Below are positions 1 to 5,856 of a stretch of DNA of 5,856 nt, piece after piece (within the stretch, counting starts at the first letter, position 1; every line of letters starts with the position of its first letter). The DNA is taken from the IMG/VR virus record IMGVR_UViG_3300007766_000052. One strand, 5' to 3'. Origin of the DNA: a virus. The position numbers and the translations under genes are program-made. The notes under the pieces are model-generated. The model saw nothing but the letters and a program-made list of their open reading frames with translations. It did no database searches and had not been told where the DNA came from.

Positions 1-66
1 GTTCGATTGCATCACGCTCGGCCAGTGCGTGATTGAGGGGAATACGCAGTTCGGACCGGCGTTGAT
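1..66. repeat. Terminal direct repeat, left copy (identical to 5791-5856); circular-genome overlap
   Basis: Base-by-base comparison: gttcgattgcatcacgctcggccagtgcgtgattgaggggaatacgcagttcggaccggcgttgat occurs at both ends. The offset of 5,790 is divisible by 3, so the capsid reading frame is preserved across the junction. Confidence 0.95.
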
Positions 67-151
67 CGAAGCTCTGCCGGTCAGCGATTACGATGCCGTG
101 ATGGACAAGGTTGATCTGGAGCGCATCGACAAGCAGCCAGTGGCCCCATAA
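1..151 (+). CDS. 3' end of the major capsid protein gene (wrap-around continuation of 4280..5856); codons start at position 2, stop TAA at 149-151
   Basis: The frame starting at position 2 reads FDCITLGQCVIEGNTQFGPALIEALPVSDYDAVMDKVDLERIDKQPVAP*. This is the same frame and the same residues as the end of the ORF that is still open at 5856. Confidence 0.85.
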   Translation, partial: FDCITLGQCVIEGNTQFGPALIEALPVSDYDAVMDKVDLERIDKQPVAP

Positions 152-307: not shown

Positions 308-865
308 ATGATTACATTGAATGACATTCATAGCTGGGAAAAGCTACCGGCTGGCGAAATTATGCCGTTTGATAACGATTATGCGCGTCCAGTGACGCTC
401 GATATCAACACGAGCAAAGAGGTCGCGCTTTTCATCATGCTCGCCGGTGAAGGCGATCTACGTTTGCTGGCTCTGGTCAAGGGCCGGGAAACGTTGAAAC
501 TCGTCGTTCCCGGCGCATATGCGATTACGCACAATGATCCCGAGGCGTACGTATATTTCTATACTCGTGACGGGTCGGTGCAGCACCGCGAGGCGCTGGA
601 CGAAGAAAGTTACACGACACATCATGAGTTCGTGGAGCGCGATCCCGCGCTTGTGGCCATCGAAGAAAAAATGATGCGCCGCTTCCGTCGTCGTGAAAAA
701 GAACTGGAGCAAACATATGCAAGGGTCAACGCAGCAAAGCCAGTCGATACAGTTCCAGTTGATACAAGCGGTAGCGAACCGGTGGCCGACGAAGGAGCCG
801 TTGAGCCTGTCGCACCCGTGTCCGACGACGAGGGGGCTGTGGTACCGGATGACGGAACAAAGTGA
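308..865 (+). CDS. Hypothetical 185-aa protein: beta-rich N-terminal part, basic helix (RRFRRREKELEQ) and acidic Pro/Val-rich repeat tail; possibly a scaffolding or other structural accessory protein
   Basis: This is a complete ORF on the coding strand, first after the large intergenic region. A weak SD (aaagg) ends 8 nt before the ATG. Its stop overlaps the next gene's start region. I recognise no motif that assigns a function. Confidence 0.65.
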   Translation: MITLNDIHSWEKLPAGEIMPFDNDYARPVTLDINTSKEVALFIMLAGEGDLRLLALVKGRETLKLVVPGAYAITHNDPEAYVYFYTRDGSVQHREALDEESYTTHHEFVERDPALVAIEEKMMRRFRRREKELEQTYARVNAAKPVDTVPVDTSGSEPVADEGAVEPVAPVSDDEGAVVPDDGTK

Positions 866-1367
866 CGTTGATACGGGCGAGGTCAGCCGGGACAGTGTTC
901 CCGGCGACATGCAAGACGCTCTGAGAGCGTTACAGGATTGGCCCTTTTTGGGCCATCCACGCTATCAAGAGCAACAGTGGAGGGCGCATAGGGAAAACGC
1001 GCACCTCTTGATACTGGAGTTTGAGAAAGCCATGGTAAAGAGGTGTTCCGAGCTGGGGATACCCATGTTCGCGCAAACCGTTGTGCGCACTCGCAAGATG
1101 CAGGCGCACCTTTACCGCAACGGCCTCTCCAAAAGCGATGGTACAAAGGAGTACGCGCATCAGCATTGCGCAGCCGATATTGTTCATAGCAAATTTGCGT
1201 GGAACATTTCCAAGGACCAGTGGAAATTACTTGGCCATATTGGAAAAGAGGTTGCGCATTTGCGCGGTATCGCTATAGTGTGGGGTGGGGATTGGAAAGA
1301 CCCATATGACCCCGCGCATTGGGAATTGGCCCAATGGCGAGAACGCGCAAAGGAAGTGCTAACATGA
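849..1367 (+). CDS. LAS-superfamily zinc metallopeptidase, peptidase M15-like (D-Ala-D-Ala carboxypeptidase / L-Ala-D-Glu peptidase fold); putative endolysin or entry-associated cell-wall hydrolase
   Basis: Motifs read directly from the translation: RTRKMQAHLYRNG, YAHQHCAAD (an H-x3-5-D zinc-ligand block, nt 1158-1178), and VWGGDWKDPYDPAHWEL (WGGDW...D..H.E, last His at 1317-1319). These match the hallmark layout of M15 peptidases. I chose the start at ATG 849 because GAGGGGG (830-836) lies upstream and the overlap with the previous gene is 17 nt. ATG 909 is an alternative. The track's 693 start would overlap the upstream gene by about 170 nt and has no SD. Confidence 0.75.
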   Translation: MTEQSDVDTGEVSRDSVPGDMQDALRALQDWPFLGHPRYQEQQWRAHRENAHLLILEFEKAMVKRCSELGIPMFAQTVVRTRKMQAHLYRNGLSKSDGTKEYAHQHCAADIVHSKFAWNISKDQWKLLGHIGKEVAHLRGIAIVWGGDWKDPYDPAHWELAQWRERAKEVLT

Positions 1368-1552
1368 AAAAGCTGGACAATCGTCAACGCCTCGTCGTGA
1401 AAGGTGCAATTAATCAATTGCAGCTGGCGCTGATCGATGCTGACCCGACGCATGCGCTCGGGCAGGCGGCAGGTTATGTCAATACACTGCTGCAGATGGC
1501 GGCGGTGGACAAGCCGTCCGCCGATAAGCTTCCCGCCGCTCCCGGTAAATAA
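1364..1552 (+). CDS. Small 62-aa hypothetical protein, translationally coupled to the peptidase gene
   Basis: The ATG at 1364 overlaps the peptidase TGA (ATGA, 1364-1367). AAGGAAG (1350-1356) lies 7 nt upstream. The ORF ends 13 nt before a strong terminator. There is no clear transmembrane segment, lipobox or recognisable motif. Confidence 0.6.
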   Translation: MKKLDNRQRLVVKGAINQLQLALIDADPTHALGQAAGYVNTLLQMAAVDKPSADKLPAAPGK

Positions 1553-1662: not shown

Positions 1663-2697
1663 ATGTGCAGGAATCCTACCACACTCCCCGAGGGAACAAT
1701 CGTTGCTTGTCGTAGCTGCGATATATGCACCGACAATCTAACCAATGATTGGGTAGGGAGGTGCTTGGCTGAAAGCCGTACCGCCGTAGGAACGCATTCG
1801 GTGACGTTGACCTACGGGCGGGACAAGGACGGAATAGACCGCCATGAGCGGACGACCGTCCTCACATACTCGGACATTCAGATTTGGCTCAAGCGTTTGC
1901 GGAACCATGGGTTCCCAGCGCGGTATCTGATTGCGGGCGAGTATGGCAGTTTGAAGGGTCGTGCCCATTGGCATGCGATCATTTTCTGGCAAGAAAAAGT
2001 AATGCCCGTAAAAATGTACCAGCGATATTGGGATGATCTGTGGGGACATGGTCATCAAGTGTGGAAGCGTCCAGAACCGTCCCACGTGAAATATTGCTGC
2101 AAGTATATCCGTAAGGATCAAAAAGACACGAACGCGCAAAGCAAGTTCCAGTTTTCCAAGGTTCCGCCGATAGGCGCTCATTATTTCGTCAACAAAGCGC
2201 GAACGATGGTAGAGAACGGCCTAGTCCCGCAGGATAGGTTTTATACGTTCCCAGAGGCCCGCCGCAAGAAATCAAGGGAACTGATAAAGTTCTATCTCAA
2301 AGGCGCGACATGGGATTTATTCATGTCCGCCTATTGCGATGCTTGGGAAAAAAAGCATCCTTGGAAAGACTTCCCGCCATCTGAGATACTTCATGAATGG
2401 GCGGACAAACATTGGCACAATAGGCAAATGTTTGTTGCGAATCCGAAAACGTACAGGCCTGTTGATGAGGCGTTGGTACGTGAGGCGCAGAAGAAAGAAG
2501 AGTACAGGAAAGCCCACGAACTGTATCACTTCGGAAAAAATAGAGTTGGGTTCTTTAACGCAGACTGGACACCAGATGAGCAAAAAGAAATCGGGCCGTT
2601 CCTCGGAACGGAGTTCTACGATCCGCAAGACCAAGTCGCAGACCTGGTCGCGGCCACAGCCGGTACAAGGTCGCTCGCGTCAGAGTTATACGACTGA
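1663..2697 (+). CDS. Rolling-circle replication initiation protein (HUH endonuclease; Microviridae VP4 / gpA-like)
   Basis: The N-terminus is MCRNP with Cys pairs (CRSCDIC). RCR motif I is SVTLTYG. Motif II (HUH) is RAHWHAIIF (HWH at nt 1966-1974). Motif III is VKYCCKYIRK, with the tyrosine at nt 2092-2094. GGAG lies 8 nt before the ATG. The 344-aa length is typical of microvirus Rep proteins. Confidence 0.9.
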   Translation: MCRNPTTLPEGTIVACRSCDICTDNLTNDWVGRCLAESRTAVGTHSVTLTYGRDKDGIDRHERTTVLTYSDIQIWLKRLRNHGFPARYLIAGEYGSLKGRAHWHAIIFWQEKVMPVKMYQRYWDDLWGHGHQVWKRPEPSHVKYCCKYIRKDQKDTNAQSKFQFSKVPPIGAHYFVNKARTMVENGLVPQDRFYTFPEARRKKSRELIKFYLKGATWDLFMSAYCDAWEKKHPWKDFPPSEILHEWADKHWHNRQMFVANPKTYRPVDEALVREAQKKEEYRKAHELYHFGKNRVGFFNADWTPDEQKEIGPFLGTEFYDPQDQVADLVAATAGTRSLASELYD

Positions 2698-2713: not shown

Positions 2714-3025
2714 ATGGAGAGTCTAGTTGACGCCATCTTTTCCGGCTCCCCCGTGAACATGGTCACGCGAGACGCGCTTGCGAAGCAAGCGTCTATCAAA
2801 GCGGGGCCAATACCTGCGCAACATGTTGCGAAAGCAACACAGCAGCCAGTAATAAAAAAGCCGCAGGCCAAAAACAGACCGGTACAAAAACTAACTGAGC
2901 CTGCACCGCAGTCGCTCTCGGCGCGCGAAGAGAAAAAAAAGGTATGTAAATCAAGGCCGGACAGGCTAGCGCCACGCCGTGCAGGCGGTGGCGCAAGTAA
3001 AGACTGGGTGCCATGGTGCAAATAG
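2714..3025 (+). CDS. Very basic 103-aa Lys/Arg/Pro/Gln-rich protein; possible DNA-binding/packaging protein (functional analogue of phiX174 J / gokushovirus VP8)
   Basis: This is the first ATG after the rep stop (16 nt downstream) in an open frame. I count about 20 K+R against 8 D+E. The sequence looks low-complexity. There is no obvious SD, and the same frame stays open upstream back to 2339, so the start is uncertain. Confidence 0.5.
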   Translation: MESLVDAIFSGSPVNMVTRDALAKQASIKAGPIPAQHVAKATQQPVIKKPQAKNRPVQKLTEPAPQSLSAREEKKKVCKSRPDRLAPRRAGGGASKDWVPWCK

Positions 3026-3086: not shown

Positions 3087-3296
3087 ATGGATAAAATAGA
3101 GGTCATCGGTTCGATTGGGCGTGAGTTGCTCGCGCCTGTCGTTCGACGCGCCGGGCTATATATAGCCGGAGTGCTTGTGACCTATGGGGTGGCCGCAGAC
3201 CATGCGGACACTTTCGTAAATCTGTCCGGGGCGCTTTTGGCGGTCACGTTGCAGATTGGTGCAGTCCTGTATAAGAGGAGAAAGAGAAATGCATGA
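3087..3296 (+). CDS. 69-aa membrane protein with two predicted transmembrane segments and a basic C-terminal tail; holin/pinholin-like candidate
   Basis: A strong SD, AAGGGGGTGA, ends 7 nt before ATG 3087. The hydrophobic stretches are AGLYIAGVLVTYGVAA and FVNLSGALLAVTLQIGAVLY, followed by KRRKRNA. Size and topology resemble class II holins. The stop overlaps the pilot gene start (ATGCATGA). Confidence 0.6.
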   Translation: MDKIEVIGSIGRELLAPVVRRAGLYIAGVLVTYGVAADHADTFVNLSGALLAVTLQIGAVLYKRRKRNA

Positions 3297-4188
3297 TGTC
3301 ATTTTCGACGCTCTTCTAGCCAACGGTGCGCCGGAAATGCATCAAGCATTTCTTGGCGCATTGATTGGCGGGTTGCTCGGACGAAAGCAGGCCAAGAAAA
3401 ACGCGAAGTTGATGGAAGAGGCGGCTAAGGTGCCGGTCGTTTCCACCAACGTCGCGAACTTGGCAGAAATGAATAAAGCGGCGCTGGCGAATGGTTATAA
3501 TCCAATGACCATTTTGCAAGCCGGGGGATTGTCGGCGTTCTCTACGACGACAACCACGGGCCATAATGCAATGGCCGCCGCGCAAGCTCGCGGCGCTGTC
3601 CCCTCGGTGGGGAGCGTCATAGCGGGCGCTATAGGCGGAACGCTCGATAATTTGGCGGGGTCACTCTTTAAGAGTGCGCTGCCAAATTCGAAGAGTTATT
3701 TTCCGCCTGCGCCCTCTGCCGACTTTGGGATGGCAGGGGCGCTAGGATGGACAAGCGGGGGCGGAAAGCCAACCGCGAGTTTTAGCGCCGTTGCTGGCGT
3801 CCCATCCTTCAAATCGGCACGATTGGCTACTAACGCAGGTGCGCCAATGTTGCCGAACTTTGCGCCTGCTGACACGGTTAATCCGTGGGTGCAGTATGGC
3901 GTCGATCCGACGACAGGCGGCGCGGAGCCGTTCGCAAATCGCTATGGCGAGAGTGAACTGGTGGAAATGGTCGCGGGCGTTTATGCCGGATGGGATGATA
4001 TCTGGTATAACGTCACCGGGATGACGAGTCAGGAACGTTATAAGTCGATGGGGCAACCCATCGCGAAAAACGTGACAAACGCATTCGATAGCGTCAAAGC
4101 CGGGGTCCTTACAAGAGACCCGAAGAAAGACACACTGTCCTTCGGAAAGGCGGTCTTTGAATTCTTCGAACCATGGATGGGGCCGTGA
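3289..4188 (+). CDS. Putative DNA pilot / minor capsid protein (phiX174 H / gokushovirus VP2-like), 299 aa
   Basis: AAGAGGAG (3273-3280) lies 8 nt before ATG 3289. The N-terminus has a Gly-rich hydrophobic segment (AFLGALIGGLLG), and the rest is Ala/Gly/Ser/Thr/Pro-rich and low in complexity. It sits directly next to the capsid gene and is about 300 aa. The function is assigned from composition and context, not from a recognised catalytic motif. Confidence 0.6.
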   Translation: MHDVIFDALLANGAPEMHQAFLGALIGGLLGRKQAKKNAKLMEEAAKVPVVSTNVANLAEMNKAALANGYNPMTILQAGGLSAFSTTTTTGHNAMAAAQARGAVPSVGSVIAGAIGGTLDNLAGSLFKSALPNSKSYFPPAPSADFGMAGALGWTSGGGKPTASFSAVAGVPSFKSARLATNAGAPMLPNFAPADTVNPWVQYGVDPTTGGAEPFANRYGESELVEMVAGVYAGWDDIWYNVTGMTSQERYKSMGQPIAKNVTNAFDSVKAGVLTRDPKKDTLSFGKAVFEFFEPWMGP

Positions 4189-4279: not shown

Positions 4280-5856
4280 ATGGCTCCGATAAAAACAAGA
4301 CATGCAACAAACCCGATTGCGGTGCCTCGCACCCGCAGAAATCATATGCTCCGCAATATGACGTCGCTGCCTGCCGGCAAGGTCGTACCTGTGGCGACGA
4401 TCCCGCTACTACGTGAGGATAGTATGCGGGGCCGGTTTGCCTTTGCATTCGAGATGCAGCAAACAGTAGAAGTTCTGTTGAACGGCATTGATGTGGTGTG
4501 TGAGGCGTGGCTAGTGCCGAATTTGGCTATGCCCGAATTTCGCACCGCAGACGATCTTGACCTTGCTTATACGGGTCGTAAGCGTGACGGTGAGGCGGCA
4601 CCGACGCCGTATTTCGTGACGCAGCCAGCCGGTGCGCCGGAAACTAATCAGGTGCACCAGCGGCTCGGCAAGCATAGGCGGTCAACGCAAATGGCCAACA
4701 TGTCCTATGTTCGGTCTTATAATGCGTTGGTCAATTTTGCCCGCGCTGAGGTGTCGGCAAACATTCCGCAGCGTGAGCTGCTCGATAAGACGCTCGCGCA
4801 AGCGATGTGGCCGAAAAATATGTTCTCGCATATTGTGCCTGATTTTGATCAGGCGGTGATGCAAGGCGAGGTAGCGTTGAGCGTTGCCCAGCAAAATCTC
4901 GCTATACAAGGCACGCTGAATGGCGGTCGCTATGTTCCGGTTTCCGGCCAGCCTAAATATGTGGCAGGCACGCAAGAGTTCGGCTCTTTCGTGGATAGCT
5001 CGAGGTTGAATAAGTTCGACACAAATGCGCCGGTGGGCAGCCCTATTTCTGACCTGAAAAACCTGAAAGCGGATTTGCAGGGCGCTGTAGCCGTATTGCA
5101 GGATAACGGTATCACGATCTCGCTGGCGAACATTGAGACTGCGAGAAAGGCGCAGATATTCGCGAATATCCGCAAGCGCTATAATGCGCATGAGGAGATG
5201 ATTATCGACCTGTTGATGGATGGTATTCACGTCACAGAGCAGGCGTGGCGGCAGCCAATCCTGCTGCGACGTGGCGATACCCGCTTCGGCATGTCCAAGC
5301 GGTATTCATCTGACGCCGACGCAATGACAACATCGATTGTCGAAGGCGCGGCAGCGATTGAGTTCGATCTAAATGTGCCTCGTGTACCCGGTGGCGGCGT
5401 TGTCATGATCGTCGCTTATTGTGCGCCTGAGCAGTTGTTCGAGCGCATGGAAGACCCCTATCTGGCGGCGCTGTCGCCGGATGATCTTCCGGCGTTTCTG
5501 GAGGATCATCTTGATCCAGAAGCGGTGGAGATCGTGAAGAATGATTACATCGATAATGACCATGATCAGCCGGATGACATTTATGGCTATGGACCGAAGA
5601 ATTTCCGGTGGAATTTCGTGCCTCCCGGCATCGGCGGGCGGTTCCATAGACCGGAGGTCGATGCCGGTTTCGATGAAGATCGTAACGCTATTTGGGCTGT
5701 AGAAACCCAAAATCCGAGGCTTACGAAAGACGCCTATCTCGTACCGGCGGACATTCACCTCAAGCCCTTCTGGACGTCCACAATTGACCCGTTCGATTGC
5801 ATCACGCTCGGCCAGTGCGTGATTGAGGGGAATACGCAGTTCGGACCGGCGTTGAT
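4280..5856 (+). CDS. Major capsid protein (Microviridae F / VP1 family), 5' part; the ORF is still open at the window end and continues at 1..151 (553 aa when joined)
   Basis: I translated this frame by hand from ATG 4280 and found no stop through 5856. The N-terminal pattern TSLPAGKVVPVATIPLLREDSM ... VVCEAWLVPN parallels the conserved G-x-hydrophobic-P ... PGD ... FFVP-x-R blocks of microvirus capsid proteins. It is the largest gene. A weak SD (aaagg) ends 9 nt upstream. It is absent from the ORF track only because it has no in-window stop. Confidence 0.85.
   Translation, partial: MAPIKTRHATNPIAVPRTRRNHMLRNMTSLPAGKVVPVATIPLLREDSMRGRFAFAFEMQQTVEVLLNGIDVVCEAWLVPNLAMPEFRTADDLDLAYTGRKRDGEAAPTPYFVTQPAGAPETNQVHQRLGKHRRSTQMANMSYVRSYNALVNFARAEVSANIPQRELLDKTLAQAMWPKNMFSHIVPDFDQAVMQGEVALSVAQQNLAIQGTLNGGRYVPVSGQPKYVAGTQEFGSFVDSSRLNKFDTNAPVGSPISDLKNLKADLQGAVAVLQDNGITISLANIETARKAQIFANIRKRYNAHEEMIIDLLMDGIHVTEQAWRQPILLRRGDTRFGMSKRYSSDADAMTTSIVEGAAAIEFDLNVPRVPGGGVVMIVAYCAPEQLFERMEDPYLAALSPDDLPAFLEDHLDPEAVEIVKNDYIDNDHDQPDDIYGYGPKNFRWNFVPPGIGGRFHRPEVDAGFDEDRNAIWAVETQNPRLTKDAYLVPADIHLKPFWTSTIDPFDCITLGQCVIEGNTQFGPAL
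5791..5856. repeat. Terminal direct repeat, right copy (identical to 1-66)
   Basis: Same 66-nt string as 1-66. Confidence 0.95.

Follow-up and report, generated by a model that had tools for sequence, protein, structure and literature searches.

The locus described here raises the question of how a phage with a genome of less than 6 kb breaks out of its host cell. One open reading frame in the window (the whole stretch of 5856 nt that was analysed) had been proposed to encode an M15/LAS zinc peptidase, which would hydrolyse peptidoglycan instead of, or alongside, single-gene lysis. Apart from a 66-bp assembly repeat at its end, the window corresponds to one complete, circular microvirus genome (5790 nt), with genes in the order VP1-ORF-peptidase-ORF-Rep-...-VP2 (Table 1). 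The VP1 capsid protein shares 58% identity with the capsid protein of Rhizobium phage RHph_Y2, and the host is probably an alphaproteobacterium of the Hyphomicrobiales. We put the probability of the whole picture developed below, i.e., a signal-less M15C-like endolysin with a 69-aa membrane protein as the best candidate for its holin-like exporter, at roughly three in four.

Table 1. Positions of the features discussed, in window coordinates, with the evidence or remarks for each.
Feature	Position	Strand	Evidence or remark
66-bp terminal direct repeat	5791..5856	.	identical to 1..66; assembly overlap of the circular genome
Major capsid protein VP1	4280..5856, continuing 67..151	+	junction-spanning ORF
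Acidic ORF185 (185 aa, pI 4.6)	308..865	+	conserved, upstream of the peptidase; no assigned function
M15 (M15_4 / M15C-like) zinc peptidase, putative endolysin	849..1367	+	ORF, profiles, AF2, Foldseek, dN/dS
R80-x4-Q85 motif	1086..1103	+	invariant in 52/52 aligned sequences, pattern in 121/121; aligns to R41/Q46 of RB49 endolysin (23ri)
H104-x5-D110-x2-H113	1158..1187	+	H104 and D110 are predicted zinc ligands; H113 invariant in the family
WGGDW...D154-P-A-H157-W-E block	1281..1325	+	alignment to RB49
Small basic ORF62 (62 aa, pI 9.6)	1364..1552	+	downstream of the peptidase
Replication initiator, VP4-like (Rep)	1663..2697	+	Pfam REP_ORF2-G2P 3e-15; PHROG 942 3.8e-30
69-aa two-helix membrane protein, candidate class II holin-like partner	3087..3296	+	RBS, hydrophobicity, co-occurrence
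VP2-like (pilot) protein	3289..4188	+	position only (synteny with relatives)

The peptidase ORF, lying within a maximal ORF of 693..1367, begins with an ATG at 849 and ends with a TGA at 1365-1367, and its product of 172 aa has a mass of 20.0 kDa and a pI of 6.8. This start is common to close relatives, whose proteins likewise have 172 aa, with the N-termini MTEQSDVDTGE and MTNQSDIDTGE. The original prediction gave the gene about 9% of the genome, and this figure is correct (519/5790, or 9.0%, terminal repeat excluded). Against relatives the dN/dS values range from 0.05 to 0.14, with dS up to about 2; the gene is kept under strong purifying selection. The claim that the protein has neither a signal peptide nor a transmembrane segment extends well beyond the window: a scan for hydrophobic N-termini found neither in the window peptidase nor in any of its 120 homologues, the single exception being one hydrophobic stretch within the core of the peptidase fold. 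On the upstream side, ORF185 shares its last 17 nt with the peptidase gene, and syntenic coding sequences are present in RHph_Y2 (1849..2400) and in the Flyfo microvirus (1829..2392). On the downstream side, the start of ORF62 overlaps the peptidase stop codon (ATGA), which suggests translational coupling; syntenic ORFs exist in relatives and are weakly conserved. A scan for promoters and terminators returned fewer sites than in shuffled sequence, and family searches with the VP2-like protein gave no match.

Assignment of the protein to the M15/LAS peptidases (MEROPS clan MD) holds by sequence profile, by predicted fold and by conservation of the active-site residues, and the resemblance goes well beyond chance. 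The window protein itself matches the endolysin family PHROG 465 (E 5.9e-13) and, as a single sequence, PDB entry 8q2g (E 4.4e-4; 4e-10 to 1e-9 with the family profile). A protein database search yielded 158 homologues. When a profile of 52 homologues was compared with the PDB, it matched Ply500 (4.2e-10), LysB4 (5.9e-10), LysECD7 (1e-9), RB49 (2.2e-9), ChiX (9e-8) and EndoT5 (0.008). Three Pfam families had been suggested for comparison, and they fared differently: Peptidase_M15_4 (PF13539) was the best of them, being matched by 30/52 relatives at E <= 0.001 (best 2.1e-10), VanY was matched by 4/52, and M15_3 was never matched among the 52 relatives. Many of the database homologues also bear a precomputed PF13539 match. 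The window protein reaches 15.6 bits against Peptidase_M15_4 (E 0.025), which lies under the gathering threshold of 25 bits, and an NCBIfam search with it gave nothing meaningful. The case for its membership thus comes from the family profile together with the predicted structure, and by transitive homology we classify it as a divergent member of Peptidase_M15_4, below Pfam's own cut-off.

Structure prediction, which had been proposed as a check, gave an AlphaFold (AF2) model with a pLDDT of 91.9 and a pTM of 0.87. Besides helices, the model contains strands at residues 73-77, 108-113, 143-145 and 157-160, and it qualifies as a LAS fold, in which helices pack on a central antiparallel sheet. 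M15 endolysins occupy ranks 1-6 of the Foldseek comparison with the PDB (8q2g, 5opz, 2vo9, 23ri, 6akv and 2mxz, probability 1.00), followed by LdcB, VanY and VanXY, and far lower by Hedgehog N-domains. By profile and by fold alike, the six best PDB matches are characterised L-Ala-D-Glu endopeptidases. The Foldseek E values of the endopeptidase endolysins (1e-6 to 1e-3) are better than those of the carboxypeptidases (3e-3 to 8e-2), and their TM scores are higher. Judged by the profiles and the model together, the peptidase has its nearest relatives among the single-domain L-alanyl-D-glutamate endopeptidase endolysins (M15C, Peptidase_M15_4), and by analogy with them it would be expected to cut the L-Ala-D-Glu bond.

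The three motif blocks on which the original prediction was built are all present in the translation of 849-1367: RTRKMQAHLYRNG (R80..G92, nt 1086-1124), AHQHCAAD (A103..D110, nt 1155-1178) and WGGDWKDPYDPAHWE (W145..E159, nt 1281-1325). The pattern R-x4-Q ... H-x5/6-D-x2-H ... D-x2-H-[WF] is kept in 121/121 family members. Residues D154, P155, A156, H157 and W158 are invariant (52/52 aligned sequences), and W149 is common in the family, though not invariant. In EndoRB49, zinc is coordinated by H62 and H117, and W109 is critical for catalysis (PMC10487532). The HMMER alignment to this enzyme pairs H104 with H62, D110 with D69 (with a one-residue gap), W149 with W109, D154 with D114 and H157 with H117. 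On this alignment, H104, D110 and H157 would hold the zinc, in agreement with the M15/LAS pattern of H-x(3-6)-D and a C-terminal His. D154, at the place of the acidic residue in D/E-x-x-H, is the probable catalytic (general) base, and W149 is predicted to be the counterpart of the catalysis-critical Trp of M15C enzymes. R80 and Q85 may bind the substrate or the transition state, lining the substrate site together with W149. Four zinc ligands had been named previously, and H104, D110 and H157 agree with our assignment; H106, which is found in just 26/121 sequences, was ruled out, and the likely catalytic D154 had been missed. Between the first and the second ligand, the loop of the window protein lacks one residue relative to the canonical H-x6-D (H-x5-D occurs in 50/121 sequences and H-x6-D in 71/121).

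These properties suggest the following course of events. The soluble zinc metallopeptidase would be made in the cytoplasm and, late in infection, it would act as an endolysin, cutting the peptide stems of the host peptidoglycan and letting the progeny escape; in this way it would replace the MraY-blocking protein of the phiX174 type. Having no export signal, it must be let across the inner membrane, and this step may be provided by the 69-aa protein, acting in the manner of a class II holin. The lysis role agrees with the annotation of the homologue as endolysin in 27 cultured lytic Rhizobium microviruses and as M15 metallopeptidase in Roseobacter microviruses, and with the literature, in which the microvirus M15 peptidase is assigned to lysis (PMC9512667, PMC11499846, PMC9239249, PMC3394797). 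It also agrees with the nearest solved relatives of the peptidase, which are endolysins or the holin-dependent ChiX. Our literature search returned neither biochemistry on an M15 peptidase from any microvirus nor any described holin of a microvirus.

The original prediction stated that an export or permeabilisation partner would be needed, and it overlooked the conserved 69-aa two-helix ORF, which we consider a candidate for this role. This ORF is preceded by a strong RBS (AAAGGGGGTGATAAA, then ATG), and it is the sole coding-strand ORF with membrane-like segments, besides a marginal internal stretch in ORF185. The protein is laid out as RR - helix 1 - DHAD - helix 2 - KRRKRNA; its two hydrophobic helices obey the positive-inside rule, the tail carrying KRRKR, and AF2 models it as a helix-turn-helix (helical hairpin) with a pLDDT of 78. 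Among relatives gathered in public contigs with a capsid alignment, the family occurs in 73 of the 81 near-complete genomes that bear the peptidase and in 0/2 of those without it, kinship being uncorrected in these counts. Peptidase-less microviruses have also been reported as subgroups 6 and 7 of the Occultatumvirinae (PMC11499846). Its lysis-related family matches are to holins only, all of them weak and below curated thresholds (phrog_6116, E 0.003; Phage_holin_10, best 0.0055), and they may reflect hydrophobic composition. The family was seen only in microviruses, hence no tailed-phage lysis cassette vouches for a holin role. Contigs of >10 kb bearing the family were considered as tailed-phage cassettes, and they proved to be microvirus concatemers, with a genome unit of roughly 5.3 kb.

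The gene of the 69-aa protein lies approximately 1.7 kb downstream of the peptidase, past ORF62, Rep and a basic ORF, so that the putative lysis genes are not clustered, and its 3' end is overlapped by the start of the VP2-like gene. Given this coupling, the 69-aa protein could also serve the pilot protein or entry. It is our tentative proposal, plausible yet short of an even chance, that this clade of alphaproteobacterial microviruses runs a two-component holin-endolysin system within less than 6 kb, consisting of the peptidase and an unannotated family of two-helix proteins of 56-80 aa, with no spanin. In such a system the peptidase and the membrane protein would be encoded apart, and the membrane protein would be co-translated with the pilot gene. 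If true, ssDNA phages would thereby gain their first described holin family.

As the original prediction had noted, there is no gene of the spanin or lipoprotein type: a scan for a signal peptide plus lipobox found none among coding-strand ORFs of at least 25 aa. Two lipobox pattern matches occur on the coding strand, both without a hydrophobic leader. No outer-membrane disruptor other than a spanin was found either. The peptidase ORF was also examined for an overprinted lysis gene of the E type, which was rejected, as the alternative frames are not open across relatives, where synonymous divergence is high.

Several other explanations of the lysis genes have to be weighed. The peptidase might reach the wall without any phage holin, by host secretion, by membrane damage due to the accumulation of virions or by a triggered host pathway, and the 69-aa protein would then be structural or pilot-associated. 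We regard this as possible, although rather doubtful. It would fit the overlap of the 69-aa gene with the VP2-like gene, with which (and not with the peptidase) it is probably co-translated, as well as the sub-threshold holin matches and the 8 peptidase-bearing genomes in which the 69-aa family is missing. However, in several of these 8 genomes the same place is taken by another small membrane ORF, which suggests a need for some membrane protein, and a signal was acquired in 0/120 peptidase homologues. Moreover, endolysins of the T5 type and ChiX use holin-type partners. It is less probable still that the 69-aa protein lyses the cell alone, either like E or through a lethal membrane lesion, while the peptidase just hastens or finishes the breakdown of the wall or has another purpose, e.g., as a VanY-like remodeller of stem peptides; among the readings considered here, we give this one the smallest chance. 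The established model for microviruses is lysis by a single gene (phiX174 E; PMC3394797), Pfam's own name for both Peptidase_M15_4 and VanY is D-Ala-D-Ala carboxypeptidase, and LdcB, VanY and VanXY do appear among the lower-ranked structural matches. Yet a gene that takes up this share of the genome under such strong purifying selection argues against a minor part for the peptidase, endopeptidase endolysins match it well ahead of carboxypeptidases, the critical M15C Trp is present, and E has a single N-terminal helix, in contrast to the two helices and basic tail of the 69-aa protein.

The lack of an export signal would pose no problem if the enzyme were delivered from outside, i.e., if a few packaged copies of a virion-associated peptidase opened the peptidoglycan locally at genome delivery. 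Such an entry role finds a parallel in phage Ebor, where traces of the peptidoglycan hydrolase Gp7 turned up in purified virions (PMC11980548). We nevertheless consider it unlikely, since Gp7 belongs to another class of enzyme and was present as traces only, the nearest solved relatives of the window peptidase are endolysins and not virion proteins, and a T=1 capsid offers little space inside. In addition, microvirus pilot proteins, such as protein H of phiX174, are believed to traverse the periplasm unaided by a hydrolase, and an entry role would leave the clade without any other recognisable lysis gene.

The novelty of the peptidase is low and had been overstated, because reports of M15 peptidases in microviruses go back to 2012 (PMC3394797), and the same gene family, already annotated as endolysin or M15 metallopeptidase, is known from cultured Rhizobium and Roseobacter microviruses (PMC9512667, PMC11499846). 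The window peptidase is one more divergent sequence in this recognised lysis-enzyme family, and it indicates that the clade probably does not use phiX174-style lysis. The 69-aa protein, in turn, offers a concrete candidate for the passage of a soluble endolysin through the inner membrane in a phage of <6 kb. Small signal-less L-Ala-D-Glu peptidases are also of interest as enzybiotics against Gram-negative bacteria.

The closest known systems are those of the Rhizobium and Roseobacter microviruses (proposed 'Occultatumvirinae'; RHph_Y2 QIG69940.1, CRPss-151), to whose enzymes the window peptidase is homologous over the full length, with 53-54% identity to Rhizobium phages and 42% to Roseobacter phages. 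In these phages, too, the peptidase gene has VP1 on one side and Rep on the other, the small ORFs flanking it are the same, and the VP2-like gene is again preceded by the small membrane ORF; the enzymes differ in sequence divergence only, the H-x5-D variant of the window being shared within the family. The position of the peptidase between VP1 and VP4 has been described for microvirus Families 7 and 14 (PMC9239249). The M15C endolysins (T5 EndoT5, RB49, LysECD7) and Serratia ChiX share the fold, the zinc triad, the catalytic Asp and the conserved Trp with the window peptidase, and they too are small, soluble and signal-less and rely on a holin-type partner, although identity is just 18-24%. 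Compared with the M15C endolysins, the microvirus enzyme has about 60 additional residues at its N-terminus, folded into a structured helical region (conserved motif EQQWRA.R..AH..ILEFE), as well as the invariant H113 and, here, the shorter ligand loop, and no holin adjoins its gene. M15_3 peptidases of human-gut Gokushovirinae and Alpavirinae have been proposed as endolysins, horizontally acquired (Roux et al. 2012, PMC3394797). These belong to PF08291, in contrast to PF13539 here, and to different microvirus lineages, and the two types are probably independent acquisitions.

Ebor (Tainavirinae) is a microvirus of Alphaproteobacteria, as here, and its Gp7, the one peptidoglycan hydrolase of an ssDNA phage with demonstrated activity (PMC11980548), is an accessory wall hydrolase encoded likewise between VP1 and VP4. 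We did not take Gp7 as experimental support for the M15 enzyme, as it matches 6SSC, the LysC amidase, which has a different fold. Ebor also encodes a small membrane protein, Gp1 (45 aa), upstream of its pilot gene, similarly to the 69-aa ORF. Protein E of phiX174 serves the same purpose, i.e., lysis of the host by a microvirus. It is an overprinted membrane protein which blocks MraY and has no enzymatic activity, whereas in the genome analysed here no overprinted frame is conserved and a dedicated enzyme gene is present.

The predicted open reading frame was found with its ATG at 849 and all three quoted motif blocks, and both this start and the 172-aa length are common to close relatives. Its assignment as an M15/LAS zinc peptidase was borne out by the family profile, the predicted structure and the active-site pattern; the single sequence gave moderate evidence, matching PHROG 465 endolysin (E 5.9e-13), LysECD7 in the PDB (8q2g, E 4.4e-4) and, under threshold, Pfam Peptidase_M15_4 (E 0.025). 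We found 158 homologues, almost all of them encoded by contigs close to 6 kb in length. A profile built from 52 homologues matched the PDB entries for Ply500 (4.2e-10), LysB4 (5.9e-10), LysECD7 (1e-9), the RB49 peptidase (2.2e-9), ChiX (9e-8) and EndoT5 (0.008). As to the Pfam families suggested originally, Peptidase_M15_4 was matched by 30 of these 52 homologues and VanY by four, while M15_3 was matched by none. The AlphaFold2 model made with the family alignment reached a pLDDT of 91.9 and a pTM of 0.87. Its top six Foldseek matches in the PDB were the endolysin or ChiX structures of the profile search, followed by the LdcB, VanY and VanXY carboxypeptidases and, far down, Hedgehog N-domains. 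Among the predicted viral protein structures collected in BFVD, the top matches were unnamed (TM up to 0.86), and named tailed-phage M15 peptidases and endolysins came next. The family-level sequence evidence thus argues strongly for an M15/LAS enzyme, and the predicted structure agrees.

In the family alignment R80, Q85, D110, H113, D154, P155, A156, H157 and W158 are invariant, and a pattern search recovered R-x4-Q ... H-x5/6-D-x2-H ... D-x2-H-[WF] in 121/121 sequences. The spacing is the canonical H-x6-D in 71 of them and one residue shorter in the other 50, the window included; the HMMER alignment to the RB49 endolysin, EndoRB49, puts a gap at this shortened loop. The same alignment pairs H104/D110/W149/D154/H157 with EndoRB49 H62/D69/W109/D114/H117; in that enzyme H62 and H117 coordinate the zinc, and catalysis depends critically on W109 (PMC10487532). 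Among the ligands proposed originally, H104, D110 and H157, aligned with H62, D69 and H117, remain the candidate zinc ligands, whereas H106 was rejected, as it is present in only 26/121 sequences.

The gene occupies 9.0% of the genome, as had been estimated (about 9%), and shares 17 nt with the upstream ORF; it also overlaps the downstream ORF. Against relatives at 75–97% protein identity its dN/dS was 0.05–0.14, with dS up to ~2, and neither of its two alternative frames stays open across relatives. It can be concluded that selection keeps the gene for the protein it encodes. A gene like phiX174 E hidden inside the peptidase ORF is ruled out by the same loss of open frames.

Positions 1..66 of the window are identical to 5791..5856, an exact terminal direct repeat of 66 bp, and the record is therefore a circular assembly of 5790 nt. 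Every recognisable gene lies on the + strand.

Predicted genes of the window
Feature	Position	Strand	Remarks
Major capsid protein	4280..5856, then 67..151 across circular junction	+	58% identity to Rhizobium phage RHph_Y2 capsid
Acidic ORF, 185 aa, pI 4.6	308..865	+	D/E/P/V-rich tail; clade-wide between capsid and peptidase genes
Peptidase	849..1367	+	M15/LAS
Basic ORF, 62 aa, pI 9.6	1364..1552	+	ATG overlaps peptidase stop codon (ATGA)
Rep/VP4	1663..2697	+	Pfam REP_ORF2-G2P 3e-15; PHROG 942 3.8e-30
Basic ORF, Lys/Arg/Pro-rich	~2576/2714..3025	+	start within or just past Rep 3' end
Membrane ORF, 69 aa	3087..3296	+	two predicted helices, basic tail
VP2-like ORF	3289..4188	+	preceded by 69-aa membrane ORF

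The acidic ORF had no match in Pfam and PHROG searches and may encode a scaffolding-type protein. A family search with the 62-aa ORF gave no match; weakly conserved syntenic ORFs are present in Rhizobium phage RHph_Y2, the Flyfo microvirus and the related locus L004. The Lys/Arg/Pro-rich ORF may specify a virion protein that neutralises DNA charge, comparable to Ebor Gp10 or VP8/J. Syntenic ORFs of 135–155 aa overlap the end of Rep in relatives (L002 4138..4605, L004 4248..4655).

The nearest records at the DNA level, with ~68–70% identity over genome parts, are Flyfo microvirus Tbat2_108 and a set of 25 Rhizobium microviruses. The window's VP1-peptidase-VP4-VP2 order is that given in the literature for Families 7 and 14 of the microviruses (PMC9239249). 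A prophage of Devosia sp. YR412 (FOFL01000005.1; locus L003, 4353..9839) has the window's gene order: small membrane ORF, VP2-like, capsid, a 211-aa ORF, M15_4 peptidase and Rep. This points to Hyphomicrobiales hosts and suggests temperate relatives. A Mesorhizobium protein (P0086) is also among the homologues. Three metagenome contigs of 14–19 kb (L155, L157, L158) are head-to-tail concatemers, with 2.5–3 copies of a ~5.3-kb microvirus genome, and represent either assembly artefacts or rolling-circle products.

We infer that the peptidase serves host lysis. Its nearest solved relatives are endolysins and ChiX, which is holin-dependent. In 27 cultured lytic Rhizobium microviruses the homologue bears the annotation "endolysin", and in Roseobacter microviruses that of "M15 family metallopeptidase"; papers on these phages regard it as the gene responsible for lysis (PMC9512667, PMC11499846), and the window holds no other lysis candidate. 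A virion-associated entry enzyme is a possible alternative: traces of Gp7, the peptidoglycan hydrolase of microvirus Ebor, were detected in Ebor virions. Gp7, the only ssDNA-phage wall hydrolase with shown activity, matches a different enzyme, amidase 6SSC.

The peptidase was predicted to have no signal, and a hydrophobic N-terminus was seen in 0/120 homologues. As in the original reading, our search of the coding-strand ORFs found no spanin-like or lipoprotein gene that might serve the outer-membrane step. The 69-aa gene is the only coding-strand ORF with membrane-like segments if one marginal stretch within the 185-aa ORF is set aside. Its ribosome-binding site is strong, the protein is laid out as RR - helix - DHAD - helix - KRRKRNA, and the AlphaFold2 model has helices at 3–32 and 37–68 joined by a turn (pLDDT 78). 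It belongs to an unannotated family of two-helix proteins of 56–80 aa with a basic tail, which an iterative search found at 63 loci out of the first 85; its members always lie directly upstream of the VP2-like gene and overlap it.

Further relatives were gathered via the capsid protein, so that the peptidase played no part in their selection. Over the 83 near-complete genomes of the combined loci, 73 carry both genes, eight the peptidase only, two neither, and none the small protein alone; the family is thus present in 73 of 81 peptidase-bearing genomes. Several of the eight have a different small membrane ORF at the same position, which suggests that one small membrane protein can take the place of another at this locus. 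Single-helix ORFs of this kind (L016 2221..2376, L117 702..839, L053 3458..3757) have in common the C-terminal motif W/H-P..Y/F.S/A-F-C, and L150 has a 47-aa lipoprotein-like ORF there (LIITGGC, 662..805). Holins are the only lysis-related families matched by the small protein, weakly and below threshold (phrog_6116, E 0.003; phrog_565, 0.008; Pfam Phage_holin_10 in 4/18 members, best E 0.0055). The family is confined to microviruses, the longer contigs bearing it being concatemers, and our literature search found no description of a microvirus holin. Given this co-occurrence, the weak matches, the microvirus-only spread and the lack of a described precedent, we consider a holin plausible, with a probability of roughly 0.35–0.4.

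M15-clan peptidases of microviruses were reported in 2012 as probable endolysins (PMC3394797). A 2022 paper described peptidase genes associated with lysis that lie between VP1 and VP4 (PMC9239249), and the window's exact family is already annotated in cultured phages. The window's enzyme, 53% identical to its closest annotated homologue, is thus a divergent addition to a known type, a correct but ordinary finding. What modest interest remains concerns the unannotated family of small membrane proteins and the microvirus M15 enzymes, for none of which our literature search found a biochemical test. These enzymes differ from the T5/RB49-type enzymes in a confidently modelled N-terminal helical extension (residues 1–60, window 849..1030), which carries a near-invariant motif of its own (Q42, R45, A46, R48, A51, I55, F58), and in the invariant H113, both of which the T5/RB49 type lacks.
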